NCBI GenBank assembly: GCA_030024085.1
Contig: JASEJE010000020.1
Location: forward strand, 129-64,128
Direction of reading: 5' to 3'
Source of the DNA: Bacillota bacterium
GTDB lineage: Bacteria > Bacillota > SHA-98 > UBA4971
Length of the DNA: 64,000 nucleotides
Under the pieces are notes generated by a model that was given only the letters and a program-made list of their open reading frames with translations, did not search any database and had not been told where the DNA came from. Every line of letters begins with the position of its first letter. The first letter of the stretch is position 1. Of the stretch, positions 424-48,617 are shown piece after piece. Made by a program: the position numbers and the translations under genes.

Positions 424-495
424 GAGACAGACAGCCTCGCCCTCGAGGAGCACAGACTGCACTGACCGGGCGGTAACACCGAGGACGATACTCTA

Positions 496-704
496 GGTAG
501 GTCGCCACAAGTTCGCGCTCCTTTTCGGCGGGTGAGTCCTGTCCGGGGTTGCCGGTGCTGCCCTCCGGGGACGGCGCGCTTGCGGCGCGCCTCGTTCGAA
601 TTTGGCGCGCGGGCTAGCCAAATTCTCGACGCCCCGTCGTGCAAGCACCGGCAACTCCAACACCGTCAGGGAAGATGGCGCAGACTTATGGCGCCATACT
701 TAGG
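496..704 (+). repeat. MITE-like palindromic structured repeat, copy 1 (variant 1: GTAGATCGCCACAAGTTCGCGC...GGCGCCATACTTAG)
   Basis: ~209 nt intergenic element. Core GGTTGCCGGTGCTGCCCTCCGGGGACGGCGCG...CGAATTTGGCGCGCGGGCTAGCCAAATTC...GTGCAAGCACCGGCAAC forms a long imperfect hairpin. Its ends are complementary (CGCCACAAGTTCGCGC / GCGCAGACTTATGGCG). Related copies occur at 6979, 22420, 31649, 35314, 41163, 63491 and 43335. Confidence 0.8.
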
Positions 705-3862: not shown

Positions 3863-5452
3863 GTGAGCAACAACAGCCTGCGTGCAGGCGGACTACGGCA
3901 AAGCCGCGCCAGGTTACAGCAAGACAGCAAGGCCAACCAGCCCATTCTAGAAATGGTCGGCATCACCAAGCGTTTCCCTGGGGTTCTCGCCCTCGACTCG
4001 GTGGACTTCCGGCTCATGCGGGGCGAGGTTCACGCGATCGTCGGCGAAAACGGAGCGGGCAAATCCACACTCATAAAGATCCTCGCCGGCGCTCACCAGA
4101 GGGACGCGGGCACCGTGTACCTCGACGGGCGGCCGGTGAGCATATCGTCCCCCGCCGACGCTGCGCGCCTCGGCATCAGCGTGATATACCAGGAATTCAC
4201 GCTCGTCCCGGCGATGACCGTGGCAGAGAACATACTGCTTTCGGACCTACCTGTGCGTCGGGGCGGGATGCTCGACAAGCGCGCCATCGTTTCCTGCGCA
4301 AAAGACGTGCTCGACGACCTGGGCGTCGACATCCCTGTGACTGCAACCGTCAGGTCGCTACGGGTGGCAGAACAACAGATAGTGGAGATAGCCAAGGCCC
4401 TGTCGCGCAAGGCCAGGATCATTGTGATGGATGAACCTACCGCCGCGCTAAGCGAGATGGAGGTCGCCCGGCTGTTCTCCATCATCCACTCCATGGTCGA
4501 GCAGGGCGTTTCCATCATCTACATATCCCATAAGCTCGATGAAGTGTTCAGGATAGCCGATACCATCACCGTCCTCAGGGACGGCCGGAGGGTCTCGACC
4601 ACGCCTACTTCCCTTCTCACGCTCACGAAGGAACGGATCGTCCACGAGATGGTCGGGAGAGACCTCGGAAACATGTTCCCAAAGGAGGAGGTCGCTCCAG
4701 GCGACGTAGTGCTCGAGGTGAAGAATCTGCGCCTACCAGGGGGGCCGTCTCCCATCTCGTTCAGCGTCAGGGCTGGCGAGATAGTCGGGGTAGTCGGCCT
4801 GATGGGCGCGGGGCAAATCAGATTGGCAAGGGCGCTCTTCGGTCTGGAGCGGATCGCCGGGGGCGAGGTGAAGATCAGGGGAAAGGCTGCTGACCTGCGG
4901 TCGCCGCTTTCTGCGGTGCATGCGGGTATCGGGTTGGTGACGGAGAACCGCAAGGAAGAAGGCCTCGTGCTGCCGCTATCGGTCGCCAGGAACATCACGC
5001 TTGGCAGCCTTGACCATGTGTCAACGCTGGGCGTGGTGTCGCAGAGGAAAGAAAGGGCCGTAGTGGATGAGAAAGTGGCCGAGCTCGGCATCAAGACCCC
5101 GTCGATTCGCCAGCTCGTGCGCAACCTGTCCGGAGGGAACCAGCAGAAGGTCGTCCTGGCGAAGTGGCTTACTGTCGATCCGGACGTCATAGTCCTCTGC
5201 GAGCCTACGCGCGGGATCGATGTCGGCGCGAAGGTGGAGATATACAGGTTGATGGGGCTCATGGCGTGGCAGGGTAAGGCCATTCTCCTGATCTCATCGG
5301 AAGTGCCCGAAGTGGTCGCCATGAGCGATAGGGTCCTGGTCATGCACTCCGGCAGCGTCGTATGCGATCTCCCCAGGGAAGAAGTCTCGCAGGAGTCAGT
5401 CATGCAGTACGCGACAGGAGGGAACGCCCTTGGGTCGCACATCGTTAGCTGA
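3863..5452 (+). CDS. rbsA: ribose ABC transporter ATP-binding protein (two fused ABC domains)
   Basis: Two Walker A motifs (GENGAGKST; GLMGAGQ) and an LSGGNQQKVVLAKWL signature. True start is probably a little downstream of the ORF-track start, near LEMVGITKRFPGV. Confidence 0.9.
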   Translation: MSNNSLRAGGLRQSRARLQQDSKANQPILEMVGITKRFPGVLALDSVDFRLMRGEVHAIVGENGAGKSTLIKILAGAHQRDAGTVYLDGRPVSISSPADAARLGISVIYQEFTLVPAMTVAENILLSDLPVRRGGMLDKRAIVSCAKDVLDDLGVDIPVTATVRSLRVAEQQIVEIAKALSRKARIIVMDEPTAALSEMEVARLFSIIHSMVEQGVSIIYISHKLDEVFRIADTITVLRDGRRVSTTPTSLLTLTKERIVHEMVGRDLGNMFPKEEVAPGDVVLEVKNLRLPGGPSPISFSVRAGEIVGVVGLMGAGQIRLARALFGLERIAGGEVKIRGKAADLRSPLSAVHAGIGLVTENRKEEGLVLPLSVARNITLGSLDHVSTLGVVSQRKERAVVDEKVAELGIKTPSIRQLVRNLSGGNQQKVVLAKWLTVDPDVIVLCEPTRGIDVGAKVEIYRLMGLMAWQGKAILLISSEVPEVVAMSDRVLVMHSGSVVCDLPREEVSQESVMQYATGGNALGSHIVS

Positions 5453-6944: not shown

Positions 6945-6978
6945 CCGACAGCAAAGAGGAGGTGGTAAACCGAGGACT

Positions 6979-7170
6979 CTAAGTGTGAGTTCAGAAATCC
7001 GTGCCGGTTTGGGAGAGGATTCCGGGTTGCCGGTGCTTGCACGACGGGGCGTCGAGAATTTGGCTAGCCTTAAGCGCCAAATTCGAACGAGGCTCACCGC
7101 ACGCGCCGTCCCTGGAGGGCAGTACCGGCAACCCTGGAAAAGTGGCGGTGATTTCTGAACCCACACTTAG
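6979..7170. repeat. MITE-like palindromic structured repeat, copy 2 (variant 2, TIR CTAAGTGTGAGTTCAGAAATC / GATTTCTGAACCCACACTTAG), inside the rbs operon
   Basis: Same hairpin core as copy 1 in the opposite orientation, with ~21-bp near-perfect terminal inverted repeats. Located between rbsD and rbsB. Confidence 0.8.
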
Positions 7171-7185
7171 TGGGATTCCAACAAG

Positions 7186-8163
7186 GTGTTGCCCGGTGTC
7201 ACAGATGTCGTCAGTGTCTCGGTGCCGTGCTCCCAAATCTTACGCGAAAGGCAGGTCAGTCACATGAAGGCGTCTAGAATCCTTGTGGCCATTCTGTGTG
7301 TAGCCCTTTTCGCAACCCTGACAGGCTTTACGGCAGCGGCGACGAAACCGAAGGCAGGTCTTGCCATATCTACGCTCAACAACCCGTTCTTCGTGGACCT
7401 CAGAGACGGGGCGCTCGAGGCAGCCGCCAAGGTTGGAATGGAGGTCAACGTGGCGGACGCCCAGAATGACCCCAACAAGCAGCTCAGCCAGGTCGAGAAC
7501 TTCATCCAGGAACGCGTTGATATAATCCTGGTCAACCCGTGCGACTCTGCGGCTATCGTGCCCGCGATAAAATCGGCCAACGCCGCCAAGATACCCGTGA
7601 TCACGGTGGATAGGGGAGCCGACGGCGGCAATGTGGTATGCCACATCGCGTCCGACAACGTCGAAGGCGGGCGGATGGCCGCCGAGTACCTCGCGAAGCT
7701 CCTCAACTACAAGGGCAGGGTCGTGGAGCTCGAAGGCATACCCGGAACCTCGGCCGCGAGGGACAGGGGCAAGGGCTTCAACGAGATCATCAAGAAGTAC
7801 CCCAACATCCAGGTGGTGGCGAGGCAAGAAGCCGGGTTCGACAGGGCCAGGGGCATGACTGTCATGGAAAACATCCTCCAGGCGCAACCCGCCATCGACG
7901 GGCTCTTCTGCCACAACGACGAGATGGCTCTTGGCGCCCTGCGCGCCATCGAGGCCGCCGGCCGTCTCTCGGCCGTCAAGATCGTTGGGTTCGATGCGAC
8001 CGACGATGCCGTGAAGGCCGTGAAGGAAGGCAAGATGGCAGCCACGGTCGCCCAGAAGCCGCGAACCATGGGAGCCATCGCAGTAGAGACGGCCAGGAAG
8101 GTGCTTGACGGTGCAAGCGTTAACGAGTTCATACCTGTCCCGCTCGAGCTTGTCACGAAATAG
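7186..8163 (+). CDS. rbsB: ribose ABC transporter substrate-binding lipoprotein/periplasmic protein
   Basis: Probable start at MKASRILVAILCVALFATLTG (~7264), giving a signal peptide. Type-I periplasmic binding fold motifs (INNPFFVDL...ILVNPCDSAA...FDATDDAVKAVKEGKMAATVAQ). The ORF-track 5' end overlaps the repeat. Confidence 0.9.
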   Translation: MLPGVTDVVSVSVPCSQILRERQVSHMKASRILVAILCVALFATLTGFTAAATKPKAGLAISTLNNPFFVDLRDGALEAAAKVGMEVNVADAQNDPNKQLSQVENFIQERVDIILVNPCDSAAIVPAIKSANAAKIPVITVDRGADGGNVVCHIASDNVEGGRMAAEYLAKLLNYKGRVVELEGIPGTSAARDRGKGFNEIIKKYPNIQVVARQEAGFDRARGMTVMENILQAQPAIDGLFCHNDEMALGALRAIEAAGRLSAVKIVGFDATDDAVKAVKEGKMAATVAQKPRTMGAIAVETARKVLDGASVNEFIPVPLELVTK

Positions 8164-8202
8164 CCTGTAGGCGAGGCTTGACCTGACGTTGGATGACCAG
8201 AG

Positions 8203-8466
8203 GTGGGGCGGGGCCGCAACCCCCGCCTCGCCGTACGTAGAGGAAGCAGGTACGGCATGACATCGGAACATGACGCCGACAGCAATGCAAGGCCTGTAAT
8301 CCTCGATTGCGGCCCGGGCCATGACGATGCCCCGGCGATCCCACTCGCGGCGGCGTCGCCGGAACTGAAGATACTCGGGATCACCACAGTGTGTGGCAAC
8401 ACCGCACTCGGCGACTCCGCCACGAACACCCTGCGCCTGGTGAGTTTCGCAGGCCCGGACCCATGA
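8203..8466 (+). pseudogene. N-terminal fragment of an inosine-uridine-preferring nucleoside hydrolase (IU-NH)
   Basis: PVILDCGPGHDDAPAIPLAAASPELKILGITTVCGNTAL is the IU-NH N-terminal aspartate/histidine cluster motif (DxDxGxDDxxAI). The ORF stops after 87 aa (enzymes are ~310 aa) and the next gene starts 120 bp later, so the remainder of the gene is absent. Confidence 0.55.
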
Positions 8467-8585
8467 TCGGTTGCGAGAGGCGCGGCGAGGCCCCTCGGCC
8501 CCTCCTTGCCAGGCTGCGCGCAGGGTGAGGAGCCGGCCCCGTCAACCCGCGATGAGAGTAACCAGGCCATTCCCTGGCAACATTA

Positions 8586-9644
8586 TTGGCGTTGGGGGGA
8601 ATGGCCATGAAGCGCATCTATAAGCATGTCTGCACATTCTTCAGGGTCTTCAAGTTCTGGGCTGGCGCGACGCGTGCCTCTTTCGCGTCGGCGAGCATGG
8701 TCCCGGTGGTGCTCGGCGGCGCCGTCGCGGCCGCCCACGGCGCCTTTGCCGTGGGGCCGTTCCTGTTGAGTGCCGTTGGAGTGCTCGCCCTGCACCTTGC
8801 GGCGAACCTCGTCAACGACTACTACGACTATACGAGCGGCGCGGACGTGATCCGCGACAGCCACACGCCTCTTTATGGCGGCGGGACGATCCTCGTTGAC
8901 GGAACGCTGATCCCGCGGCAGGTGTCGCGGGCATACAGGTTCCTCTACGCGGCGGCGCTCCTCGCAGGGATCGCCCTCGCAGCAATGCGCGGCGCTGGCG
9001 GTGCTGGCGTGCTCGCCTTTGGCTTTGCAGGCTCTCTATGCGGGTACTTTTATACCGCGCCGCCCCTCCGCCTCTCCTACGTGGGGCTCGGCGAGGCCAC
9101 GATAGGGCTATGCTTCGGGCCGCTCACCGTGGCTGGCGTCTACTTCGTGCAAACCGGCAGGCTTGGCGCGGAGGCCATGGAGGCTCTGGTCGCTTCACTC
9201 CCAGTGGGCCTCCTTGTGGCTGCCATAGTATTCGTCAACGAGTTCCCTGACCGCGCGTCCGACGGCGCTGCCGGCAAGCGCACAGTCGTGGTGCGCCTCC
9301 CCCTGCGCGCGGCCCTCGCCTGCTACGCCGCGCTCGTGCTGGCGCCGTTCGCCGTCATCGCCAGCGCCATCCAGCTCGGGCTACTCCCGCACGGCGCCGC
9401 TCTCGCGTTTCTCGGCCTGCCCCTCGCCGTGCTGGGCATCAGGAACCTGCGCGCCGCCTATGCCACTTCGGGTACGCGGCGTGCCGGTGCAGGCGCCAGC
9501 GCCCCAGGCGCCCACGAGTCCTCCACCGCCTGTACCGCGTACGTTACGTCCCGCCAGGTGGTAGCCAGCATCTCAACTATCCTGCTACACCTCGCGGTGG
9601 GCCTGCTCCTCTCGCTGGCTTTCGTCGTGCAGTTGTTTAGCTGA
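8586..9644 (+). CDS. UbiA-family prenyltransferase (MenA / 1,4-dihydroxy-2-naphthoate prenyltransferase-like)
   Basis: Polytopic membrane protein with NDYYDYTSGAD (MenA/UbiA Asp-rich motif) and a second Asp-rich region NEFPDRASD. Likely start MKRIYKH (~8607). Confidence 0.7.
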   Translation: MALGGMAMKRIYKHVCTFFRVFKFWAGATRASFASASMVPVVLGGAVAAAHGAFAVGPFLLSAVGVLALHLAANLVNDYYDYTSGADVIRDSHTPLYGGGTILVDGTLIPRQVSRAYRFLYAAALLAGIALAAMRGAGGAGVLAFGFAGSLCGYFYTAPPLRLSYVGLGEATIGLCFGPLTVAGVYFVQTGRLGAEAMEALVASLPVGLLVAAIVFVNEFPDRASDGAAGKRTVVVRLPLRAALACYAALVLAPFAVIASAIQLGLLPHGAALAFLGLPLAVLGIRNLRAAYATSGTRRAGAGASAPGAHESSTACTAYVTSRQVVASISTILLHLAVGLLLSLAFVVQLFS

Positions 9645-25499: not shown

Positions 25500-26384
25500 A
25501 TGGAGGTGGTTGGCGTGACCCAGGTGGACATCATACGGGCAGTGCAGTCCATAGCGAACCCGGTGCTCGACGTGATTTTCGGCGCCATCACCATGCTGGG
25601 CGCCGAGGGGTTCTTCATTGCGATCGTGGCGGTCCTCTTCTGGACGGTCTCAAAGCGGCTGGCGATCAGAATCGGCGTGCTTCTCATCCTGTCTTCATTC
25701 GCCAACTCCGGGCTCAAGGACCTCTTTCGGCTGCCGCGCCCCTCCCCCGAAGACGTGCGGGTGATAATGCCCGAGACGGGCGGAGGATACGGGTTCCCGA
25801 GCGGCCACGCGCAAGCGTCCACGGTCTTCTGGGGTTACCTCGCTCACGCGATCAGGAATCGCTCTTTCACCATCGGCGCTGCCGTGCTGGTCTTCCTCAT
25901 AGGACTCTCACGGATATACCTCGGAGTGCACTTCCCGGGCGACGTGGTGGGAGGTTTCGCGTTCGGCGGGATCATCCTTGCAGCGTACATCTGGATCACT
26001 GGCCGCCCGGAGCTACGCGCCGCCGCTTCCATCTCCACCGGCCAGCTCGTCCTCATCGTAGCGGCGGCCCCGTTCGCTCTGCTCTTGCTATACAGGTCGG
26101 CTGAGGCGTTCAAGATGGTGGGCTTCCTTGTGGGGGTCGGAGCCGGATACGTGCTCGAGGACAGATTCGTCCGCTCAGAGGAACGTGCGCCCTTTGCCAC
26201 GCAGGTGCTCAAGGTCGTCATCGGTCTCGCAGGGGTCTTCGCGCTCCGCGCCGGGCTGAAGGCTCTCTTCGCACCGGAGACGGCGGTGCTTGCGCTGGTG
26301 CGCTACGCAGCGATGGCCGCCTGGGCCAGCCTCGGCGCGCCTTTCCTGTTTGCACGGGCGCTTGGCCTCGCCCGACGGCAATAA
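25500..26384 (+). CDS. PAP2-superfamily (type 2 phosphatidic acid / undecaprenyl-diphosphate) phosphatase
   Basis: All three PAP2 motifs are present: KDLFRLPRP, PSGH, SRIYLGVHFPGD. Confidence 0.75.
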   Translation: MEVVGVTQVDIIRAVQSIANPVLDVIFGAITMLGAEGFFIAIVAVLFWTVSKRLAIRIGVLLILSSFANSGLKDLFRLPRPSPEDVRVIMPETGGGYGFPSGHAQASTVFWGYLAHAIRNRSFTIGAAVLVFLIGLSRIYLGVHFPGDVVGGFAFGGIILAAYIWITGRPELRAAASISTGQLVLIVAAAPFALLLLYRSAEAFKMVGFLVGVGAGYVLEDRFVRSEERAPFATQVLKVVIGLAGVFALRAGLKALFAPETAVLALVRYAAMAAWASLGAPFLFARALGLARRQ

Positions 26385-26489
26385 GAGACGCAAGCAGGAA
26401 ACCGGGGAGGCAGCGCGAACATTAATCGTTATACCTAATACTGCTCTGCTAGATGCGAAATGACGTCTTATTTGACGGGCCCGGCGGGC

Positions 26490-27050
26490 TTGTCTGGCGG
26501 AGAGACTCCTGGCCTTGGCCTTTGAGCGTGCAGTCCCCGGAGGACCCGTGATGTACGGAACGGGTAGGGCAGAAAGAGTGACGCACGTCACGCTTCGCCT
26601 TGCATGCGTGACGCAGGGAACGGGTAAGGGCCGGAACAGTGATGTACATCACTGGATGGCTCTCAATGATGACGTAGGGAACAGCTAAGGAGGGACCCGT
26701 GACGTGCGTCACTGGCCCCGCTTCGACGAGTGACGTAGGGAACACTTCGTGGAGAACCCGTGACGTGAGGAACGGGTGAAGCGGCAAGGATGATGTGCGT
26801 CACCGGTAGGCTCCTGTTGCGTGATGCGGGGAACGGGAAGGACGCGACGAGTGACATGCGTCATCTTTCCCCTTGCATGTGTGCCGTAGGGAACGGGTAA
26901 GGCCGGGACGGGTGATGTACGTCAATCGTTGGCTCCTAATGACGACGTAGAGAACGGGTGAGGAGCATTCCGTGATGTACGTCACTCGTCCACGTCACCC
27001 GTCAGCTCAAGTGACGGCACTACCAAAAGGTCCGTATGTGGCAGAGCAAT
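26490..27050 (+). repeat. complex 60-bp-periodic tandem array, element A (conserved flanks plus ~8 units)
   Basis: Each unit has a 22-mer GTGACGTAGGGAACGGGTAAGG and a 14-bp palindrome GTGACGYRCGTCAC, spaced every 59-61 bp (22-mers at 26548, 26608, 26668, 26731, 26761, 26821, 26881, 26940). Spacers between units are themselves related to one another. Inverted copy at 43398..43995. Confidence 0.8.
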
Positions 27051-27140
27051 ACTGAGCAGGACAGAACAGCTGCCTCGGGGATGGCCCCGGGGTCCTGAGC
27101 GTTTGAGCCCGCAAGCAGACTGACTGATCGTTAACTGGGG

Positions 27141-28364
27141 GTGGTCCTTAAGATGCAGAGCACGTTCGCCGCACGGGCACAGAAACTTCAGCGCTCCGAG
27201 CTCGCAGCCCTTTTCGCGCTGGCGGAGGAGCCGGGGGTCATATCGTTCGCAGGCGGGTTCCCCGACCCGGAGTGGTTCCTGCCCGAGATCACCGAGATAA
27301 GCGACGGGATCATGCGCGCAAACCGGGGGGTTGCTCTGCAGTACGGGCCGACGCCCGGTTTCACCGCGCTGCGCGAGTTCATGGCCGAGCGGCTGACCGG
27401 CCAGGGCATGAAGTGCAGCGCAGCGGACGTCCTCATAACCAGTGGCTCGCTCCAGGGCCTGGACCTGGTGTGCAAGATATTCCTGGAGCCGGGCGACGTG
27501 GTCCTCACCGAGGCGCCGACATACATCGGAGCCCTCCAAACATTCGCGAGCTACGAGGCGGATATCGCGAGCGTTCCGATAGATGCCGACGGCATGAGGA
27601 TCGAAGTTCTGGAATCCGTGCTTCAGGACATACGCGCCGGCAAGCAAGCAGGCGGGCGCATGCCGAAGTTCATCTACACGATTCCGTCGTTTCAGAACCC
27701 GTCAGGGTGCACCCTGAGCCTCGAAAGACGGCGCGCTCTCCTCCAGGTTGCGTCGAGGTTTGGTGCCCCTGTCGTGGAAGACCATGCTTATGCCGAGCTC
27801 CGCTACGACGGCGCACACATCCCTGCCCTCAAGGCCCTCGACGAGGACGACATCGTCGTCCATCTCGGGACGTTCTCGAAGATCTTCTCGCCCGGCCTCC
27901 GCCTGGGCTGGATGATCGGGCCTAGGCCGGTCATGGAAAAAGCCATCCTCTTCAAGCAGGGCACAGATCAGTGCTCCAACTCCCTCGGCCAGATCATGGC
28001 GCTCGAGTACGGGAAACGGGGCCTCATCGAGAAGCAGATAGAGGTCACCGTCGCAAGCCTCCGGAAGAAGAAGGACGAAACCTTGAAGGCCCTGCGCACG
28101 CACTTCGGAGACGCCATAACCTGCACGGTTCCGCAGGGTGGTTTCTACACGTGGGTGACTTTCCCAGAAGGCATCGACACCGTGGCGCTCCTGCCGCGCG
28201 CTGTCAAGGAATACAGCGTCGCCTACGTTGCGGGCCCCTCGTTCTACGCCGACCGCTCCGGCGCGAACAAGGCCCGCCTCTGCTTTAGCCAACCTGGCGT
28301 GGACCAGATCGACGAAGGCATCCGACGGCTCCATGCGTGTTTCGGCGCTTGCGCCGGGCAATAG
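27141..28364 (+). CDS. PLP-dependent aminotransferase (class I/II; MocR/LysN-like catalytic domain without HTH)
   Basis: Fold-type I aminotransferase architecture with the Lys-containing region FSKIFSPGLRLGW. Confidence 0.75.
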   Translation: MVLKMQSTFAARAQKLQRSELAALFALAEEPGVISFAGGFPDPEWFLPEITEISDGIMRANRGVALQYGPTPGFTALREFMAERLTGQGMKCSAADVLITSGSLQGLDLVCKIFLEPGDVVLTEAPTYIGALQTFASYEADIASVPIDADGMRIEVLESVLQDIRAGKQAGGRMPKFIYTIPSFQNPSGCTLSLERRRALLQVASRFGAPVVEDHAYAELRYDGAHIPALKALDEDDIVVHLGTFSKIFSPGLRLGWMIGPRPVMEKAILFKQGTDQCSNSLGQIMALEYGKRGLIEKQIEVTVASLRKKKDETLKALRTHFGDAITCTVPQGGFYTWVTFPEGIDTVALLPRAVKEYSVAYVAGPSFYADRSGANKARLCFSQPGVDQIDEGIRRLHACFGACAGQ

Positions 28365-31547: not shown

Positions 31548-31648
31548 AGCGCGACGCCTCGTCGCGGTGCCCAGCGCCCCGCCGGGTGCCGCATGCCTGT
31601 CGTCGCTCCCTCCACTCCCAGGTTCTCCTCCAGGTCTCTCACAGTTAA

Positions 31649-31858
31649 GTAGATCGCCACAAATTCGCGCTACTTTTCAGCGCAAGTCCTGTCCAGGGTT
31701 GCCGGTGTTGCCCTCCGGGGACGGCGCGTGCGGTGAGATGCGTTCGAATCTGGCGCTCAAGGCTAGCCAAGTTCCAGGCGCCCCGCCCTAGCAAGCACCG
31801 CGAGCCCCAACACCTTCAGGAGAAGTGGCGCAAACTTATGGCGCCATACTAACTTAAG
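31649..31858 (+). repeat. MITE-like repeat, copy 4 (variant 1)
   Basis: GTAGATCGCCACAAATTCGCGCTACTTTTCAGCGC...GAAGTGGCGCAAACTTATGGCGCCATACTAACTTAAG. Lies between the helicase start and the DUF2284 gene end. Confidence 0.8.
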
Positions 31859-33440: not shown

Positions 33441-33470
33441 AGGCGCGAGAAGGAGCGAGCAATAAGAACT

Positions 33471-33498
33471 AGGGGGCGCCCCATAGATCGCCCCCGTG
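33471..33498. terminator. GC-rich hairpin between convergent genes (GGGGGCG-ccccatagat-CGCCCCC)
   Basis: Lies between the RelE stop (33440) and the DUF3794 gene stop (33572). No strong U-tract. Confidence 0.35.
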
Positions 33499-33571
33499 GT
33501 GGCATTTCGTTTCTGACAGGAGCAGTATTAGCAGCACCGGGTCTGCATGAGACTTACGGTTTTGCCCTGGT

Positions 33572-35323
33572 TCACGGGATAACCAGCGTGTCGCCGATCT
33601 CGATGCGGTCGGGGTCGGGAATTGCATTGGCCTGCACGATCGCCGCGACCGTGGTGCCGTAGCCCTGGGCTATCTGGTATAACGTCTCGCCCACCTGCAC
33701 CACGTGGACGCGCCCCGGCGTGGGCACCTGCCCGCCTCCGCCCACCGGCGGCCCTGGCAGGCCCGTGGACGGTCCTGGCAGTTGAGGGGCGATCTCGCCT
33801 GCGCCCGCCGTCGTGTCGTTCACGCCCACCACGGCCGACACGGTGTCGACGCGCGTCACCATGGTCCAGCCGCGCAGCACGACTCTCACATTTACGAACC
33901 TGGGCTCGACCGGGACAGCCACCACCCGGATGACGTCTATGTCGCACACGGCGTAGTAGGCCGGAATGGCGCCTGGCACCCGCAACGTCACCGAGAACGG
34001 CACCGTCTCCACGGTCGCGAACACCCTCTGGGTCGGAAGCTCGGAGTAGAGCACGGTGATTCGCAAGGTGCCTTCCACCAGCACCACGCCGTCGAGGACC
34101 GTGGTCCTCGTCACGCGTACCTGCGCAAACGACTGGATCACCCTGCCGATCGCCGGCAACTCGGCAGGCACGACGATCCGCACCGGGATCGTGGAGTTGT
34201 CCTCGACCTGGCCCACGATCTCCTCCACGAGGAACTCCCGGGTCACTGCCACGAGCGGAGTCGGAAGCGGCTCCACCGCCGTGATGAGCGGCAGTTCCCT
34301 CTCGACCGTCACGACCACGGACACCCGGAGCACGACCCTCACCCGGAGCGTGCGTGCGTTCACGATCTCAGCATCAGCGGCCTCCACGTGTACCGAGGCG
34401 AACGCGAACATCCCCGGCAGCACCCCTGGAAGGCTCACGACGGTGCTGAAGCTGAGGGCACCGTCCACCGAGAATACGGGCTGGTTCGGGCTCATTGCCA
34501 CGTAGAGCACACGCACCGAGACGGCCCCGTTCACCACCACTTTGCTCTGAAGCACCCGGGCGCTGCTCACGGACGCCGCAGCATCGGTGCGGATGACCTG
34601 AGACACGCCGGGTTTGTCCGGCGGTATCGATATCGTCCCGACCGCGATGGTCTCGGCCTCACCCTGCAACACCGCCCGCTCGACTGTGACCACCTTTTTC
34701 TTCACGATGGGCACCACCGGCACTTCCACAGCGGGCACGATGATGGTGGGCGGCACCTCCACCACGACCTCGGTGATCTCCTCCCTGAGGACGCGCACTC
34801 TCAGCGACACAAGCACGTTGACCTCGACGGTTCTCGGATCGATGAGCCGCGCCGTGGCGAATACGCTCGTCACGAGCACCTCCGGGATCATGCCGCCGAA
34901 GACTCCCGGCACACTCACGCTCCCGAACAGGGGCAGCACACCCTCGAAGGCGTGTACCGGCTGCGACGGCGCCGTGGACACGTAGAGAATGTCCACGTCC
35001 ACGTTTCCCTGGATGACCACGGCCCCCGGCACGATCGTGACCTGCGTGATGGCCGCCCGCGCCTGGGTGTCGAGGATGGATGCGATGTCGGGCTTCGGAG
35101 GAGGCACGACCAGCCGCCCGCTCGCCACGATGCTGGCGCTGACGTCGGCGACAACCACCTCGACCTTCACTTTCCTCCGGGGGAAGCCCGATACGATTAC
35201 ATCGGAAGACAACTCGCTCCCTCCTTCCCGCAGACTCCTTACCAGGATATGATATGTGAAGCGCCCACCGGGCGCCACAGGGCGCCGGCGCGCGGCGCAC
35301 CCCGAGGCCGAATGTGGGTTCAC
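33572..35323 (-). CDS. multi-repeat DUF3794 (SipL-like) protein with C-terminal LysM domain
   Basis: Four ~120-aa repeats with the VxGxVxVxxLYVAxxPxQPVxxxxxxxxFxxxxxxPG(A/V)xPG pattern. C-terminal LysM (VHVVQVGETLYQIAQGYGTTVAAIVQANAI). Probable TTG start near 35212, after GGAAGGAGGGAG. Confidence 0.75.
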   Translation of the reverse strand: MNPHSASGCAARRRPVAPGGRFTYHILVRSLREGGSELSSDVIVSGFPRRKVKVEVVVADVSASIVASGRLVVPPPKPDIASILDTQARAAITQVTIVPGAVVIQGNVDVDILYVSTAPSQPVHAFEGVLPLFGSVSVPGVFGGMIPEVLVTSVFATARLIDPRTVEVNVLVSLRVRVLREEITEVVVEVPPTIIVPAVEVPVVPIVKKKVVTVERAVLQGEAETIAVGTISIPPDKPGVSQVIRTDAAASVSSARVLQSKVVVNGAVSVRVLYVAMSPNQPVFSVDGALSFSTVVSLPGVLPGMFAFASVHVEAADAEIVNARTLRVRVVLRVSVVVTVERELPLITAVEPLPTPLVAVTREFLVEEIVGQVEDNSTIPVRIVVPAELPAIGRVIQSFAQVRVTRTTVLDGVVLVEGTLRITVLYSELPTQRVFATVETVPFSVTLRVPGAIPAYYAVCDIDVIRVVAVPVEPRFVNVRVVLRGWTMVTRVDTVSAVVGVNDTTAGAGEIAPQLPGPSTGLPGPPVGGGGQVPTPGRVHVVQVGETLYQIAQGYGTTVAAIVQANAIPDPDRIEIGDTLVIP

Positions 35324-35497
35324 AAGTTCGCTCCGGTGTTCCAGCGAATTCCGGGTTGCCGGCGTTGCGCTCGGGGGACGACGCCCTTGCGGGGCGCCTC
35401 GCTAGATTTGGCGTTCAGGCCTGCCAAATCTTCAACGCCCCTCGCGCAAGCACCGGCAACCCCTGGAAAAGTGGCAGTGATCTCTGAACTCACACTC
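35314..35497. repeat. MITE-like repeat, copy 5 (variant 2-like 3' end CCTGGAAAAGTGGCAGTGATCTCTGAACTCACAC)
   Basis: Same hairpin core. Immediately upstream of the DUF3794-LysM gene. Confidence 0.75.
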
Positions 35498-35686
35498 TGG
35501 GCCCGGCGCCTGATCCGCTCGATCACAGAAGGGACCTCCGGCGTTTTCGCCAGGGTCCCTTCCAACTGCGTTGCGCTGCGTTGCGGGCAAGACGCTCTGC
35601 CCGGGTACGGCGCCAGAAGCTTTGGCCACTTTACCAGGCGGAATCAGGGTTCGCAATCAGGGCCCGCGTTGTTCGCGGTAATCGCC

Positions 35687-41029: not shown

Positions 41030-41162
41030 CGCACACCCCTCCCTTGTGGTCCTCCGTCCGCCGCGCGCGTGTGCGTGTGCCCGTGTGTGCGGAGCGCCGC
41101 CGCGAGGCGCGGCCAGGCGCCGCCACGTGCCGTCAAACTTCGTCAGATGTCTCTAAGTAGAT

Positions 41163-41364
41163 CGCCAGAAATCCGCGCTGCTTTTCAGCGTGCAGGGGCT
41201 CTCCTGGGTTGCCGGTGCTTGCACTCCGGGGACGGCGCGCTCGCGGCGCGCCTCGTTCGAATTTGGCGCACGGGCCAGCCAAATTCCAGGCGCCCCGTCG
41301 TGCAAGCACCGGCAACCCTACCACACTCAAGAAAAACGCCGAAGACTTCTGGCGCCATACTTAG
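41163..41364 (+). repeat. MITE-like repeat, copy 6 (variant 1; TIR CTAAGTAGATCGCC...GGCGCCATACTTAG)
   Basis: Full-length copy between the epimerase start and the GH18 gene stop. Flanked by ATGTC on both sides (possible target-site duplication). Confidence 0.8.
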
Positions 41365-43334: not shown

Positions 43335-43400
43335 TCACCGGCAACCCAGCAGCCGCTGGAACGCCCGAAGGGATTAATGAACCCTCACTTAGTACCGCTC
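43335..43400. repeat. MITE-like repeat remnant (3' end only)
   Basis: CACCGGCAACCCAGCAGCCGCTGGAACGCCCGAAGGGATTAATGAACCCTCACTTAGT matches the variant-2 3' terminus CACCGGCAACCCTGGAAAAGTGGCGGTGATTTCTGAACCCACACTTAGT. Confidence 0.45.
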
Positions 43401-43995
43401 TGTCACATATGGAGCGCTGGCAGTACCGTCACTTGAGCTGACGGCTGACGTACGTCACGGGTTCGTCCCCAACCGTTCCCTACGTCACCGTTGATAGCCG
43501 TCCGCTGATGTACATCATCGGTCCCGGCTTTACCCGTTCCCTACGTCACACATGCGAGGGGTAGCGGGACGTGCGTCACTCGTCAGGCTCTTCCCGTTCC
43601 GCACGTCACCCATCGGGGGCCAATGGGTGACGTACATCATCGTTGCCGCCTCACCAGTTCCCTGCGTCACGGGTTCTTCATGAATCGTTCCATACGTCAC
43701 CCGTCGAAGCGAGACGAGTGACGCACATCACGGCTCCGTCCCCAACCGTTCCCTGCGTCACGCTTGAGAGCCATCCAGTGATGTGCATCACCGATGCGAG
43801 CCTTACCCGTTCCCTGTGTCACCCATGCAACGGGAAGAATGATGTATGTCACTCGCCAGGCTCTTCCCGTTCCATACGTCACGCATCGAAGCCAATTGCT
43901 GACGCACATCACTCTCCACCTTACCCGTTCCGTACATCACGGGTCTCCCGGGAACTACACGATTGAGGGCCACCGCGGCCAGGAGTCGCCGTGCC
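43398..43995 (-). repeat. complex 60-bp-periodic tandem array, element B (inverted copy of 26490..27050)
   Basis: CCTTACCCGTTCCCTACGTCAC recurs every ~60 bp (43467, 43530, 43590, 43650, 43745, 43805, 43865, 43925). Both ~50-70-bp flanks are homologous, in inverted orientation, to the flanks of element A. Confidence 0.8.
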
Positions 43996-44051
43996 GGACA
44001 AACCCGCAGACCTGCCAAACCGGATGGCACTTCGTATCTGACAGGGCAGTG

Positions 44052-45110
44052 TTACCCGTGCCTGGCCCGCCGCGTGCCGGGCAGCCGCAGCCTAGGGCGG
44101 GCGAGGTAGCGCGTGAACGCGGTCGCGGCTTCCCGGAGAGGGGAGATCAGTGCACCCAGGGCCGCGCGGGCTGCGCCGGGCCCCTGCCGGGCGGATTCAC
44201 CCCGGACAGGCGCGTGAGCACTTCCCGGCCTCTCCGTTGCCTCTGCCGCCTCCGTTGCCTCCATTTCCGCCGTTGCTTCTACGGCCTCCATTTCCGCCGC
44301 TGACCGGGCTGCCCCTACCTCCAGCGCCGACGTCGTTGCATCCATTTCCGGCTTTGACTCCGTCGCTTCCGCTGCGCTGTTCGTCCCCGTTGCCCCCTCG
44401 GTCTCCGTCGCCAGCTCCGACGGCGCCGCATCAGCGCTCTGGTCGCCGGAACGCCGCTCCCCCGCCTCGATCGCCGTGATCACTGAAAGCACTACGGTCT
44501 CCAGCACAAGCGCGTCAATGACGACGGTCGCGGTCACGCATATCCTGCCAGGCCCAGCGACGGTCCGCCGCACGCCATCAGGGTCCCTCGGGGCCCGCCA
44601 CTCGTCCGCCTCCCTGGCGTCACATCCATGCTCGGAGCCATCGTCCCCGCAGGCGGAGCGGCCGACGCCCGCCGTGCCAGCCACGCCCGCCGCGATCCAG
44701 GCGCTCTGACATCCCACGCTGAAGCGCCCCTCCACGGACATGCCCCGGCGGAGCGATACATCTTCAATGAGAGTCCGAAGGTCCTCTTCCCAGGAAAGCG
44801 CGCGCACCGGCCTTCCGTCTGACAGGCAGTAAGCCCACACAAGGAGCGTCGCGGATGCGAGGGCCGACCCGTCGAAGACATCCCACGACGGGTCGAGCAC
44901 GTCGATGGTCAGGCCCACGACTTCCCGCACGCCCTCCGGCGCCTCGTGCCACAGGCTGACCGTGACCTCGCGCGCGAGCCTGCACACGACCCGCTCCACG
45001 CGCAGCGTCTCCGTCCTCACGCTGATGCCGCCGAACCGGTCAGACCCGCCCAACCCCCTGCGCCTCCCCGGGCCGAACCCGGCCGTGCGCTGCGCTCCAG
45101 CGCATTGCAT
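44052..45110 (-). CDS. hypothetical protein (Ala/Glu/Thr-rich C-terminus); gene model uncertain
   Basis: Long ORF with no recognised domain. Central part (LWHEAPEGVREVVGLTIDVLDPSWDVFDGSALASATLLVWAYCLSDG) looks protein-like; the ends are low complexity. Confidence 0.3.
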   Translation of the reverse strand: MQCAGAQRTAGFGPGRRRGLGGSDRFGGISVRTETLRVERVVCRLAREVTVSLWHEAPEGVREVVGLTIDVLDPSWDVFDGSALASATLLVWAYCLSDGRPVRALSWEEDLRTLIEDVSLRRGMSVEGRFSVGCQSAWIAAGVAGTAGVGRSACGDDGSEHGCDAREADEWRAPRDPDGVRRTVAGPGRICVTATVVIDALVLETVVLSVITAIEAGERRSGDQSADAAPSELATETEGATGTNSAAEATESKPEMDATTSALEVGAARSAAEMEAVEATAEMEATEAAEATERPGSAHAPVRGESARQGPGAARAALGALISPLREAATAFTRYLARPRLRLPGTRRARHG

Positions 45111-46322: not shown

Positions 46323-48617
46323 CTACGGATCGACGACGACCGGGATCTGATCGAACTGAGTGACCTTCACGTCTATCCTGATGACGACCTTCTCCGTGAA
46401 ACTGCCGGTCGCAGGGTCGAACTCCCAGACGATGTTCTCGATGAACGAGTGGTCCTGCTCGTCCATGCCCTCGCGCACCGGCACGTCGGGGTTGATCGGA
46501 GTGACCTCCACCATCTCGCTGAACGGCAGGTCCTCCGCCAGATGGTGGACGAGATCGTCGGTGCCCACGTAGAAGATCTGCTTGTGCACGACGCCCTGCA
46601 CTATGACCTTGCCGTTCTTCACGATGGAGCCGATCTCGCTGATCCTGGCCTCCACGTCCACGATCTTGGTGGCCGGGAGGGTCTTCGTCTCCTCGATGAG
46701 CTTCTGCTTCGTGCCGTGCCCGACCACGAGGTCGGTCGCGATGACGGTACCGTATGGCTCCACGGCAACAGGTATCTGCTCCATCTCCGTGACCTTCACG
46801 CCAAGGAGCAGGATTATCTTCTGCGTGAGCGTCCCGGTGGCCGGGTCGAACTCGAACACGAGGTTGTCGACGATGGAGTGATCCTGCGAATCCATGCCCT
46901 CCTGCACCGGGAAGTTCGGGTTGAGTGGCGGCACCTCCACGAGGTCACTGAAGGCGATGTCCTCAGCGATGTGGTGAACGAGGTCGTCGGTGCCGACGAA
47001 GAAGATCTGCTTGTGCAGCGTGCCCTGGACGATGACCTTCCCGTTCTTGACGATGTGCTTTATCCTGGATATGCGCGGGATGATCTCCATCACCTTCGTA
47101 GCAGGGATTGTCTTCGTTTCTTCGATGAACTTCTGCTTCGTGGCCTCGCCAACCACCACCGCGGCCTTGATGAACGTGCCGTATGGCGAGAGTGCCACAG
47201 CGATCTGCTCCGTGTCCGTGACCTTTACCTGCAGCCTGAGTACGATCTTCTGGGTTAGAGCGCCGGTCGCAGGGTCGAACTCGAACACGTTGTTCTCGAT
47301 GACCGACATGTCGCGCTGGTTCATGCCCTCGGTGACCGGACGGGCCGGGTCGAGCGGCACCACGTCCACGAGCTCGCTGAAGTCCATATCCTCGGCAAGG
47401 TGGTGCTCCAGGTTATCCGTCCCGATGTAGAAGATCTGCTTGTGGACCGTGCCCTGGACGATGACCTTGCCGTTCTTCACGATGGACCTCACGTTGGTCA
47501 GGACGGGAACGATCTCCACTATCTTGATGGCCGGAACGGTCTTCGTCTCCTCCAGCAGCACCTGCCTCGTGCCGTGGCCGATGACCCTCTCCACCTTGAT
47601 CGTTGCCTTCTGGTCCACGATCTGTGTTATGTCAATCATCTGCGAGCCTCCTTTCAAGCTCCTGCCGGAGCTTTCTGGTGAGCGCCTGAGGAAGGCGGGC
47701 CCCGCCTTCCGCGCGTCCCCCCTTTCCTTGAGTTGTGGTCTATGCTGATCGGACGGGCGTAAACGCCCCTGGGTTTGATCGTTCGTGTGGGCACCGCGCA
47801 AGAACGTAGCGTCCTGCTCCCGACGGACTGCGCCTGAAAGGGCGACCGCGTCGTGGCCTCGCATGCCAGGCGGATGATCCCCCCGGAACTCAGGCAGCGG
47901 TCCAGAGCCGCCTGCAGGCGCGGGCGATGAGTCAGGGTCTGAGATGGCATGCGGGGTGGTGTCGCCACGGACCTCGTCTGGGCCGTGCCCGGTGCTCCCG
48001 ACACAGTGTCGAGAGCCTTCGGCGGCCGGTCGCGCCAGCCTGTCGCTTCGCCATGAGGTACCGGCGGCCAGGAAAAGGTGTCTCCGTTGTCGAGCTGGTA
48101 GGGAATTCCCGGGGTTGCCAGGCATTGCCGGGGCGCCGCCGATGGGTTCGGACTCGAGGGCAGCGGGCGCGCCATGAGGCCAGTCGGCCGGGCCGTCGGC
48201 GCCTGGGCTGACTGGGGAGAGGGTCTTGCCTGCGCCGTCGCGGTGCGCGTTGATCGAGGCAGGCGTGCTGGTACAGGTGGAAGCAGGGCTCGCATCTCGC
48301 GGATAGCGCGGGATGTCCGAGCCGCAGGGGGTGGGCGCGTCGCAGCGCGTCCTTCGCGCTCGCGAGGCATCGCTCGTCGCAACATCGCGGGCCACAGGTA
48401 TCGGCGCAGCCGCAGGAGGTACGTCGCGCCCTGTAAGCGAAGCCGTCCGGCGCCCTCGCCTGCGTAGCGACGTGCCGAGCACAGCCCCCATAACCGCAAG
48501 GGCCACGAAGACGATTATGATGAGCTGCCATCCGACGCCAAATGCCACAGCCGGTCCCTTCTCCCTGGCTTTCTCCCTATATCGTATTGACATCCCTGGC
48601 GAAGTGTGATGGGTCAC
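46323..48617 (-). CDS. DUF3794 protein with three near-identical ~130-aa repeats; N-terminal extent ambiguous
   Basis: Repeats VIGHGTRQVLLEETKTVPAIKIVEI... / VVGEATKQKFIEETKTIPATKVMEI... / VVGHGTKQKLIEETKTLPATKIVDV... Strong internal start MIDITQ at ~47639 with GAAAGGAGG. In-frame upstream ~1 kb encodes a putative TM helix (WQLIIIVFVALAVMGAVLG) plus a Pro/Arg/Ala-rich region. Confidence 0.7.
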   Translation of the reverse strand: MTHHTSPGMSIRYREKAREKGPAVAFGVGWQLIIIVFVALAVMGAVLGTSLRRRGRRTASLTGRDVPPAAAPIPVARDVATSDASRARRTRCDAPTPCGSDIPRYPRDASPASTCTSTPASINAHRDGAGKTLSPVSPGADGPADWPHGAPAALESEPIGGAPAMPGNPGNSLPARQRRHLFLAAGTSWRSDRLARPAAEGSRHCVGSTGHGPDEVRGDTTPHAISDPDSSPAPAGGSGPLPEFRGDHPPGMRGHDAVALSGAVRREQDATFLRGAHTNDQTQGRLRPSDQHRPQLKERGDARKAGPAFLRRSPESSGRSLKGGSQMIDITQIVDQKATIKVERVIGHGTRQVLLEETKTVPAIKIVEIVPVLTNVRSIVKNGKVIVQGTVHKQIFYIGTDNLEHHLAEDMDFSELVDVVPLDPARPVTEGMNQRDMSVIENNVFEFDPATGALTQKIVLRLQVKVTDTEQIAVALSPYGTFIKAAVVVGEATKQKFIEETKTIPATKVMEIIPRISRIKHIVKNGKVIVQGTLHKQIFFVGTDDLVHHIAEDIAFSDLVEVPPLNPNFPVQEGMDSQDHSIVDNLVFEFDPATGTLTQKIILLLGVKVTEMEQIPVAVEPYGTVIATDLVVGHGTKQKLIEETKTLPATKIVDVEARISEIGSIVKNGKVIVQGVVHKQIFYVGTDDLVHHLAEDLPFSEMVEVTPINPDVPVREGMDEQDHSFIENIVWEFDPATGSFTEKVVIRIDVKVTQFDQIPVVVDP

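Follow-up and report, generated by a model that had tools for sequence, protein, structure and literature searches.

A probable new family of long, BOX-like modular elements accounts for two palindrome arrays in a Bacillota genome

The two palindrome arrays found in the window (the whole stretch of DNA that was analysed, 64 kb in length) most probably belong to a new family of long, BOX-like modular elements of the MITE type that insert at TA, for which we infer both a transposase and transposition itself. The kind of element is already known; it is the family that is new. Given that the arrays lie between terminal inverted repeats, are dispersed in many copies, drift after insertion and gain and lose whole units, their internal grammar is a record of the duplication history of the array, and it should therefore not be taken as evidence of a function for the host.

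Each array sits inside an element of ~620 nt with sharp boundaries, which consists of a 5' module, the array and a 3' module, and whose ends are terminal inverted repeats of 16-20 nt with TA flanks. The two loci of the window are collinear and ~80% identical well beyond the repeats. When 16-18 copies are aligned, similarity begins abruptly at (TA)GTACTGCTCTGTCAGATACGAAATGCCAT and stops just as abruptly at CCATATGTGACAGAGCAGTAC(TA), and the inverted-repeat ends of the family, of ~20 nt, can be written as GTACTGCTCTGTCAGATACG ... CCATATGTGACAGAGCAGTAC; one internal position of these repeats differs consistently, with a G at the 5' end and a C at the 3' end. The TA flank is found at 11 of the 16 aligned 5' ends and at 9 of the 17 aligned 3' ends; the majority of the other ends differ from TA by a single transition. 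Since TA is the invariant flank, a duplication of the target is inseparable from the inverted-repeat ends in the array family. The element is non-coding: no open reading frame runs across it, and units of 59-61 nt break any frame. Its GC content is 58-59%, compared with 64% for the window. The features of the two copies, and of a fragment located between them, are the following:

26436..27054, plus strand: element copy 1, whole, with TA at the 5' side and TG (a mutated TA) at the 3' side, defined by the copy alignments
26438..26457, plus strand: 5' terminal inverted repeat of copy 1, ATACTGCTCTGCTAGATGCG, for which the family consensus is that given above
26458..26547, plus strand: 5' non-repeat module of copy 1, conserved between copies according to alignments and nhmmer matches
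26548-26985, plus strand: array 1, 15 sub-units with a 30-31-nt step, in the order ABABABA-ABABABAB
26986..27032, plus strand: 3' non-repeat module of copy 1, defined by the copy alignments
26999-27017, plus strand: inverted repeat CCGTCA-gctcaag-TGACGG within the 3' module, with covariation not above the shuffle control
27033..27052, plus strand: 3' terminal inverted repeat of copy 1, CGTATGTGGCAGAGCAATAC
33498..33531, minus strand: solo fragment of the family 5' end, without an array, CTAATACTGCTCCTGTCAGAAACGAAATGCCACC (nhmmer E = 4e-4)
43390..44054, minus strand: element copy 2, whole, with TA on both sides, containing array 2
43445-43940, minus strand: array 2, paralogous to array 1, 17 sub-units in the order ABABABABA-ABABABAB

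Pattern matching over the 64-kb window found the A and B motifs in both arrays, far above chance. At up to two mismatches, GTGACGYRCGTCAC gave 17 matches in the window where 1.5 were expected, a number reached in 0 of 100 shuffles, and 14 of the 17 fall within the two arrays. The 22-mer, at up to three mismatches, gave nine matches where 0 were expected, four of them at 26.5-26.9 kb (plus strand) and the other five at 43.4-43.9 kb (minus strand). The clusters of 22-mers and palindromes on the two strands thus correspond to two arrays in opposite orientation.

The arrays are built by the alternation of two sub-units, A (GTGAYGYRnGGAACGGGTRAGG) and B (GTGAYGYRCRTCAC), which have the octamer GTGAYGYR in common as their 5' start. 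The original prediction described a strict 60-bp period; given that A and B share the octamer at a step of 30-31 nt, that period is the A+B pair and the basic step is half as long. The palindromes of array 1 start at 26578, 26639, 26699, 26790, 26851, 26912 and 26972 (n = 7). Five of these positions are those originally given, two have to be moved (26793 to 26790, and 26971 to 26972), and the eight sites first proposed become seven. Each of the arrays has a single A-A step that interrupts the alternation, located at 26730/26760 in array 1. There is also a third level of repetition, in which three distinct A+B units make up a block of ~180 nt; in array 1, 26547-26718 is repeated at 26820-26991 with 75% identity. 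The “spacers” resemble each other because this block of three AB units recurs, and the initial view of a higher-order satellite with related spacers was correct, its levels being sub-units of 30 nt, A+B units of 60 nt and blocks of ~180 nt. Tandem Repeats Finder detected neither array, as the units are too divergent. The arrays had also been judged not to be a CRISPR, and this still holds: the spacers are kept from unit to unit and from copy to copy, the same architecture is present at at least 20 loci, and the Pfam scan of neighbouring ORFs revealed no cas genes. The identical repeats, unique spacers and cas genes or leader that characterise a CRISPR are therefore not those of these arrays.

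When a degenerate A-B pattern was scanned over 185,579 species-representative genomes, 28 blocks were found. At least 21 of them are in MAG107 (JBLNDE01, Bacillota), where they occupy 15 contigs with a total of 1.16 Mb, while UBA6811 has four and two other Bacillota MAGs have one each; an isolated match in a gammaproteobacterial MAG is close to the chance expectation for the pattern. In metagenomes the scan matched 24 contigs, most of which come from one sample (Ga0067045) or from assemblies of bioreactors, and no similar DNA was found in annotated plasmids or phages. Many copies are located at contig ends, and MAG assemblies are broken by the repeats described here. Window copy 1 matches one of the metagenome contigs (L046) at 100% identity and the corresponding locus of MAG107 (L008) at 97%, and MAG107 contig 62 and the window are 92% identical over 2.8 kb (the range between MAG107 and the window being 92-97%). 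From the identity of L046 and that of contig 62, the population from which the window derives is close to MAG107.

The 17 copies of 610-680 nt maintain the same order of sub-units, with a mean column identity of 72%. The modal length of the element is 610-625 nt, and other copies measure 307, 491 or 700-875 nt. Orthologous copies differ by whole units: a MAG107 copy (L018) is without 320 nt of array that are found in L035, and the array of L019 is ~170 nt longer than that of its orthologue L034. At another locus (L050), a full copy is directly followed by a sibling of 131 nt, which has the same terminal inverted repeats and TA flanks and an unrelated interior without an array; the two have one TA in common. 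These copies show that the ends, and not the array, define the element family. As in elements of the BOX type, distinct 5' and 3' modules surround tandem internal modules that vary. Remnants of the array truncated at the 5' side were found at one locus in three bioreactor metagenomes.

Filled and empty sites illustrate the mobility attributed to the family. The flanks of array 2 align with a MAG107 locus (L058) at 95.6% identity (46298-44379) and 94.7% identity (43347-42523), and the 744 nt that separate them in the window (44091-43348), which include element copy 2, correspond to 48 nt in MAG107 (L058 4784-4831). Two more relatives (L059 and L060) have the intergenic region without element copy 2. 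Judging from these alignments, element copy 2 is, in all appearance, a lineage-specific gain. The junction is imperfect: on the left side of the 5' TA the window carries 40 additional nt, and the right flank of copy 2 is a fragment of another repeat family, both in the window and in MAG107. The site of array 1, between a PAP2 gene and an aminotransferase gene, exists in three states among the relatives: it is filled in MAG107 (L008); in L053/L054, where the aminotransferase is 88% identical, it contains an orthologous copy that is decayed and truncated at the 3' side; and in L055, with an aminotransferase 84% identical, only 47 nt lie between the flanking genes. Array 2 is thus absent from three relatives (MAG107, L059 and L060) and array 1 from one (L055); the spacer of array 1 is rearranged, and at neither site does the empty allele consist of TA alone. 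The one clean duplication of TA belongs to a second, co-resident family of ~210 nt with different inverted repeats. In L051 a member of this family interrupts an array copy and is bordered by TA...TA; the empty allele is represented by the orthologous array copy of MAG107 (L025), which is continuous and reads TG at the point of insertion.

Neither a transposase nor a longer element with the same ends was found in the ~470 kb of compared loci, in which a search with the terminal repeats matched only the array elements and the 131-nt sibling, and the autonomous parent looked for in this way was discarded for these loci. A Pfam scan of the ORFs found no transposase among the neighbours of both window copies, which are unrelated housekeeping and spore-envelope genes (PAP2, aminotransferase, GH18/LysM protein, glycosyltransferase); an exact-protein look-up of the aminotransferase returned no record.

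Once inserted, the copies change at a rate that can be measured against that of the neighbouring genes. Six orthologous copy pairs were compared between the window population and MAG107. The orthologous elements differ at 7.4% of their positions (187/2529), and in the flanking genes the third codon positions differ by 7.8% and the first and second by 2.4-2.5%. Within the orthologous pairs the divergence of the motif cores is 7.4% and that of the linkers is 9.0% (Fisher p = 0.24). The comparison reads as if, after insertion, the copies drifted near the synonymous rate without host constraint. Copy 1 is an exception, since it is 97% identical to MAG107 while the identity of the neighbouring third codon positions is 76-82%. 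This copy lies within a 1.3-kb tract of high identity that covers 400 nt of the PAP2 gene on one side and 130 nt of the aminotransferase gene on the other, and because the tract enters both flanking genes the similarity is read as the result of recombination. Strong selection on copy 1 was rejected on the same basis, and because the 5 other orthologous pairs are without such conservation.

Another way of looking at constraint is to compare paralogues, and here the motif cores stand out: their identity to the consensus is 0.91-0.95, with 42-57% of invariant columns, compared with 0.86 and 27% for the linkers and with an identity of 0.77-0.85 for the terminal repeats. That the cores are better kept than the linkers and the terminal repeats is not predicted by a pure transposition constraint. 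Shuffling of units within the arrays may explain this conservation, and it may also be that the motifs are bound by a protein such as a transposase. Along these lines, A and B could be putative protein-binding sites that travel as mobile cargo, and the array a sponge or a nucleation platform for the transposase, for a factor encoded by an element or for a host regulator. We consider this proposal unlikely, the higher core conservation among paralogues being the only hint in its favor. If it were true, each copy would plant 15-17 putative sites at a new locus, with the geometry GTGA-N6-TCAC that operators of the CRP/FNR and Rex types have. The neutral divergence of the elements and the absence of the palindrome outside them speak against a host regulon and are compatible with a role at the level of the element. 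An ECF-sigma-like reading of the motifs (GGAAC ... CGT) was discarded, since the spacing to CGTA is ~5 nt too long with respect to the consensus.

The original prediction went further and proposed the phased palindromes as a platform for a DNA-binding protein, considered here as a dimeric one of the RacA/ram, ParB or iteron type, that would organise or anchor the origin-proximal part of the chromosome, possibly as a centromere-like platform or during sporulation. Several observations agree with this notion. The palindromes follow one another at regular distances, a single half-site is present in the A sub-units, ram has the half-site TGACG as well (PMC4914108), and among paralogues the cores are the better conserved part, as described above. 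Two of the origin-proximal markers that had been named, ksgA and yabG, are indeed inside the window, as is a yabE-like gene, and the three together make an origin-proximal location plausible. However, the proposed comparison with the published ram consensus gave the same half-sites with a spacing that differs by 2 bp. The ram sites have the 14-bp consensus TGACGCCGGCGTCA and are found in 25 regions between -412 and +200 kb (PMC4914108), whereas the palindrome described here has the core TGACG-YR-CGTCA, in which the half-sites are closer together. At up to two mismatches the ram consensus has 2 matches in the window, which is the chance level, and 0 in the arrays. The step of 30-31 nt corresponds to ~2.9 helical turns, so that the sub-units are not in phase with the helix, and the RacA- or ParB-like binding protein that was anticipated did not appear, as no such domain was found among the 30 window ORFs scanned.

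The distribution of the arrays is also difficult to reconcile with an anchoring role. There are copies on at least 15 contigs, of 1.16 Mb, in a single MAG (MAG107); close relatives differ in whether they have the arrays, with one orthologous copy decayed; and divergence after insertion proceeds at the synonymous rate without sparing the motifs. A motif search beyond the arrays, which had been put forward as a way to reveal other sites, found almost no palindromes outside the elements: the element regions (35.5 kb) contain TGAYGYRCRTCA 205 times and the other 435 kb of the compared loci contain it 8 times, and among these 8 matches 5 lie in element copies missed by the mask and 2 in a decayed remnant array. 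Being nearly confined to the elements, it gives no sign of a host regulon that uses the palindrome. Taken together, the neutral drift, the polymorphism in presence and absence and the confinement of the palindrome, to which the mismatch in spacing with ram can be added, make a role in anchoring the host chromosome very unlikely.

The possibility that the arrays are transcribed as a discrete RNA was raised by the original prediction itself. According to this idea the elements would be genes for large structured ncRNAs of ~620 nt, closed by their paired ends and with the B palindromes as hairpins, which seems to us highly improbable. It is true that the predicted fold is more stable than that of shuffled sequences (z-score of -4.5 on the plus strand, with an MFE of -278 kcal/mol versus -232 kcal/mol on the minus strand), that positions 5/10 of B on the sense strand are T·G 80 times and C·A 10 times, and that the orientation of the elements is biased toward the direction of the downstream gene. 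However, the z-score on the minus strand is also low (-4.2), and folding better than shuffles on both strands is expected of a sequence full of palindromes. The covariation term of RNAalifold contributes only -2.9 of -121 kcal/mol. When the closing stem, the seven B hairpins and the 3' hairpin are considered together, 86.4% of the cells pair, compared with 86.3% in column shuffles, which indicates that complementarity comes from the conserved palindromes and not from compensatory change; in the closing stem, 8-9 of 17 copies do not pair at the column pairs 22/738 and 25/735. The excess of T·G over C·A was discarded as evidence of an RNA, given that T·G is ancestral at most B positions and that B2 has 4 C·A versus 4 T·G.

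The surroundings of the elements and the databases point in the same direction. No sigma-70-like promoter or terminator was found at either window copy, the upstream flanks are unrelated between copies, and the near-neutral divergence of the element also argues against a gene for an RNA. The search of Rfam gave nothing credible, either at gathering thresholds over the whole window or at E up to 10 at the locus, and ARAGORN found no tRNA or tmRNA. Thus, with neither the Rfam match nor the covariation that would identify a structured ncRNA family, with no promoter or terminator and with upstream flanks that are not conserved, the element is not thought to be an RNA gene. A CsrA sponge, with GGA in hairpin loops, was rejected because the ACCCGT/ACGGGT stems, drawn by eye, contain uncompensated mismatches in several copies. 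An analysis of covariation at the level of the unit (240 units) was left unused, as it is confounded by mixed registers and unit types.

A different question is whether such a mobile element could affect its neighbours in cis, in the manner of REP/BIME, BOX or STAR sequences, by acting on mRNA stability, attenuation or translation and so filtering the insertions and orientations that survive. Precedents exist in BOX elements (PMC3049150). In 15 of 19 unique loci the element has the same direction as the gene downstream of it (p ~0.02, with crude GC3-based gene calls), each window copy shares its orientation with the genes on either side, and the predicted folding potential of the element is high. 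Against this, the orientation counts depend on those crude calls, no constraint after insertion was seen in the orthologous comparison, and the bias could equally reflect a preference for one replication strand at insertion. In Bacillota genomes most genes are expected to be co-directional with replication. An effect in cis therefore appears improbable, and the reading of the arrays as the interiors of TA-inserting, MITE-type elements, against which the orientation bias also counts, is the one that is followed below.

To our knowledge, there is no sequence relationship between BOX elements and this family, nor would one be expected from the host and the GC content, and the likeness is one of architecture. 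The BOX elements of S. pneumoniae and S. suis (boxA-boxB(n)-boxC) are, like those described here, composite and non-coding, with end modules that carry terminal inverted repeats around a tandem array (PMC3049150). In both cases the number of internal modules varies between loci and strains, the elements form clusters with other repeat families and are subject to mutual insertion, and the mobilising transposase has only been deduced; the length of BOX, 67-637 bp, overlaps the sizes found here (PMC3049150). Unlike the hosts of BOX, the host in this case belongs to a high-GC uncultured lineage of Bacillota. The number of sub-units is nearly fixed at 15-17, with two alternating types and a central A-A step, whereas BOX has 0-8 copies of a single boxB, and the TA flanks are prominent here, unlike in BOX.

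The MITEs known as Correia/NEMIS, RUP and ERIC are also non-autonomous and non-coding, with terminal inverted repeats and 5'-TA-3' termini, and as in this family they are present as dispersed intergenic copies with filled and empty sites and with strong predicted folding if transcribed (PMC2229807). The classic bacterial MITE is smaller than 200 bp and A+T-rich (PMC2229807). With ~620 nt versus <200 bp, the element described here is 3-6 times longer than those MITEs and only mildly AT-shifted, and it is dominated by its internal tandem array, unlike Correia/NEMIS, RUP and ERIC. Its length and its GC content of 58%, neither small nor A+T-rich, count against the MITE reading, and the 131-nt sibling with the same ends does have the size of a MITE. 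RUP matches IS630-Spn1, whereas no matching IS was found here in ~470 kb of loci.

The STAR sequences of Staphylococcus are the closest known analogue for the form of the array only. They are intergenic arrays of short GC-rich motifs with recurring “spacers” of at least 40 bp, as here, the number of units at a locus expands and contracts in both, and the “start signature” of STAR is comparable to the 5' module (PMC3532100). STAR is described as arrays of direct repeats, with no mention of terminal inverted repeats or TA flanks and with an unknown mode of spread; its spacers are locus-specific, whereas the linkers here are common to the copies, and purifying selection has been argued for STAR and is not seen here (PMC3532100). 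Finally, the ram sites of Bacillus subtilis RacA are, like those of the arrays, GC-rich TGACG/CGTCA palindromes that occur in clusters (PMC4914108). They differ in that ram is a 14-mer, TGACG-CCGG-CGTCA, while the site described here has a 12-mer core, TGACG-YR-CGTCA, and in that ram is made up of individual sites on the chromosome, within 25 regions surrounding oriC (PMC4914108), while here the sites are units of a mobile repeat.

Based on all of the above, the following mechanism can be proposed. A DDE transposase acting in trans, expected to be IS630/Tc1-like or IS5-like, would recognise the ends of the element, insert it at a TA and duplicate that TA. The inserted copy would not be maintained by the host and would drift at about the synonymous rate, while whole units would be gained or lost by slippage or unequal recombination. 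With time, copies would become truncated, and they would also be targets of other TA-inserting MITEs of the same genome.

In this way, two conspicuous non-coding arrays and several other repeats of the window are explained as families of mobile repeats, of a kind that is open to confusion with CRISPRs, ncRNAs or centromere-like sites. This family represents an unusually long and elaborate composite repeat of the BOX-like type outside the streptococci, and since the number of units and the insertion sites vary between close relatives, it is a possible marker for strain typing. If its transposase were found, the family would be a useful case for the origin and persistence of long internal tandem arrays in MITEs.

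Within the window, two further repeat families were found besides the array element, the non-coding repeat of approximately 620 nt. One is interspersed and has a length of approximately 210 nt, with inverted repeats distinct from those of the array element and with ends of the form (TA)AGTAGATCGCCACAAGTT ... AACTTATGGCGCCATACT(TA). The other is approximately 195 nt long and is also found in loci L003, L004, L005, L020 and L039 of other genomes and metagenomes, at 75-95% identity.

Copies of the two families in the window
490-703, copy of the ~210-nt family
31646-31850, copy of the ~210-nt family
41148-41364, copy of the ~210-nt family
6977-7173, copy of the ~195-nt family
35349-35501, copy of the ~195-nt family

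The 3' ends of array elements are often adjoined by copies or fragments of the ~210-nt family, array copy 2 of the window being one case, and in L039 a copy of the ~195-nt family lies immediately after an array element. In the compared locus L051, a ~210-nt copy (492-699) interrupts the array element itself, with a TA...TA duplication; the orthologous array copy in the close relative MAG107 is intact at the corresponding point (L025, 6885-6887) and lacks this insertion.

The array element also occurs in reduced forms. A solo 34-nt piece of its 5' end leads into a GC-rich hairpin that runs out into a T-rich tail; together they occupy 33461-33531 (minus strand), just 3' of the stop of the ORF at 33572-35323 (minus strand), and the hairpin with its tail (33495-33461, minus strand) looks like an intrinsic terminator. 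A short sibling and truncated arrays were found in the compared loci.

Short sibling and truncated copies of the array element
L050 2003-2134, minus strand, 131-nt sibling element with array-family terminal inverted repeats and TA flanks, interior unrelated
L029 3325-3700, 5'-truncated degenerate array
L038 about 8150-8610, minus strand, 5'-truncated degenerate array
L048 about 3870-4300, minus strand, 5'-truncated degenerate array

The sibling adjoins a full-length array copy, and one TA is common to both. The degenerate arrays share a single locus at which the array has been conserved across three separate bioreactor metagenomes, and they start directly after apparently coding DNA; they are read as an old relic copy in a more distant lineage.

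Array copy 2 also abuts a gene: the ORF at 44052-45110 (minus strand), which has no Pfam match and contains a 9-nt coding repeat, is closed by a TAA stop that arises at the TA junction with array copy 2. Its MAG107 orthologue (L058, 4026-4844) differs at the C-terminus and lacks 204 nt present in the window (44176-44378). Several SipL/LysM paralogues are clustered at 33.5-38.8 kb and 46.3-50.7 kb, a cluster kept in the relatives' loci L053, L055, L056 and L058-L060, and one SipL/SPOCS-domain gene carries a 429-nt tandem repeat (46383-47552; 2.7 copies, 71% matches).

Across the 19 unique element loci of the window and L001-L051, the array element is co-directional with the downstream gene in 15 (binomial p about 0.02, from crude GC3-based gene calls); the bias may reflect an effect of transcription or of the replication strand. 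Around array copy 1, a 1.3-kb tract (25984-27283), with the array at its centre and both flanking genes partly included, is 96-100% identical to MAG107, against 78-92% for the rest of the region. This pattern of identity looks like recent recombination between the window and MAG107 lineages.
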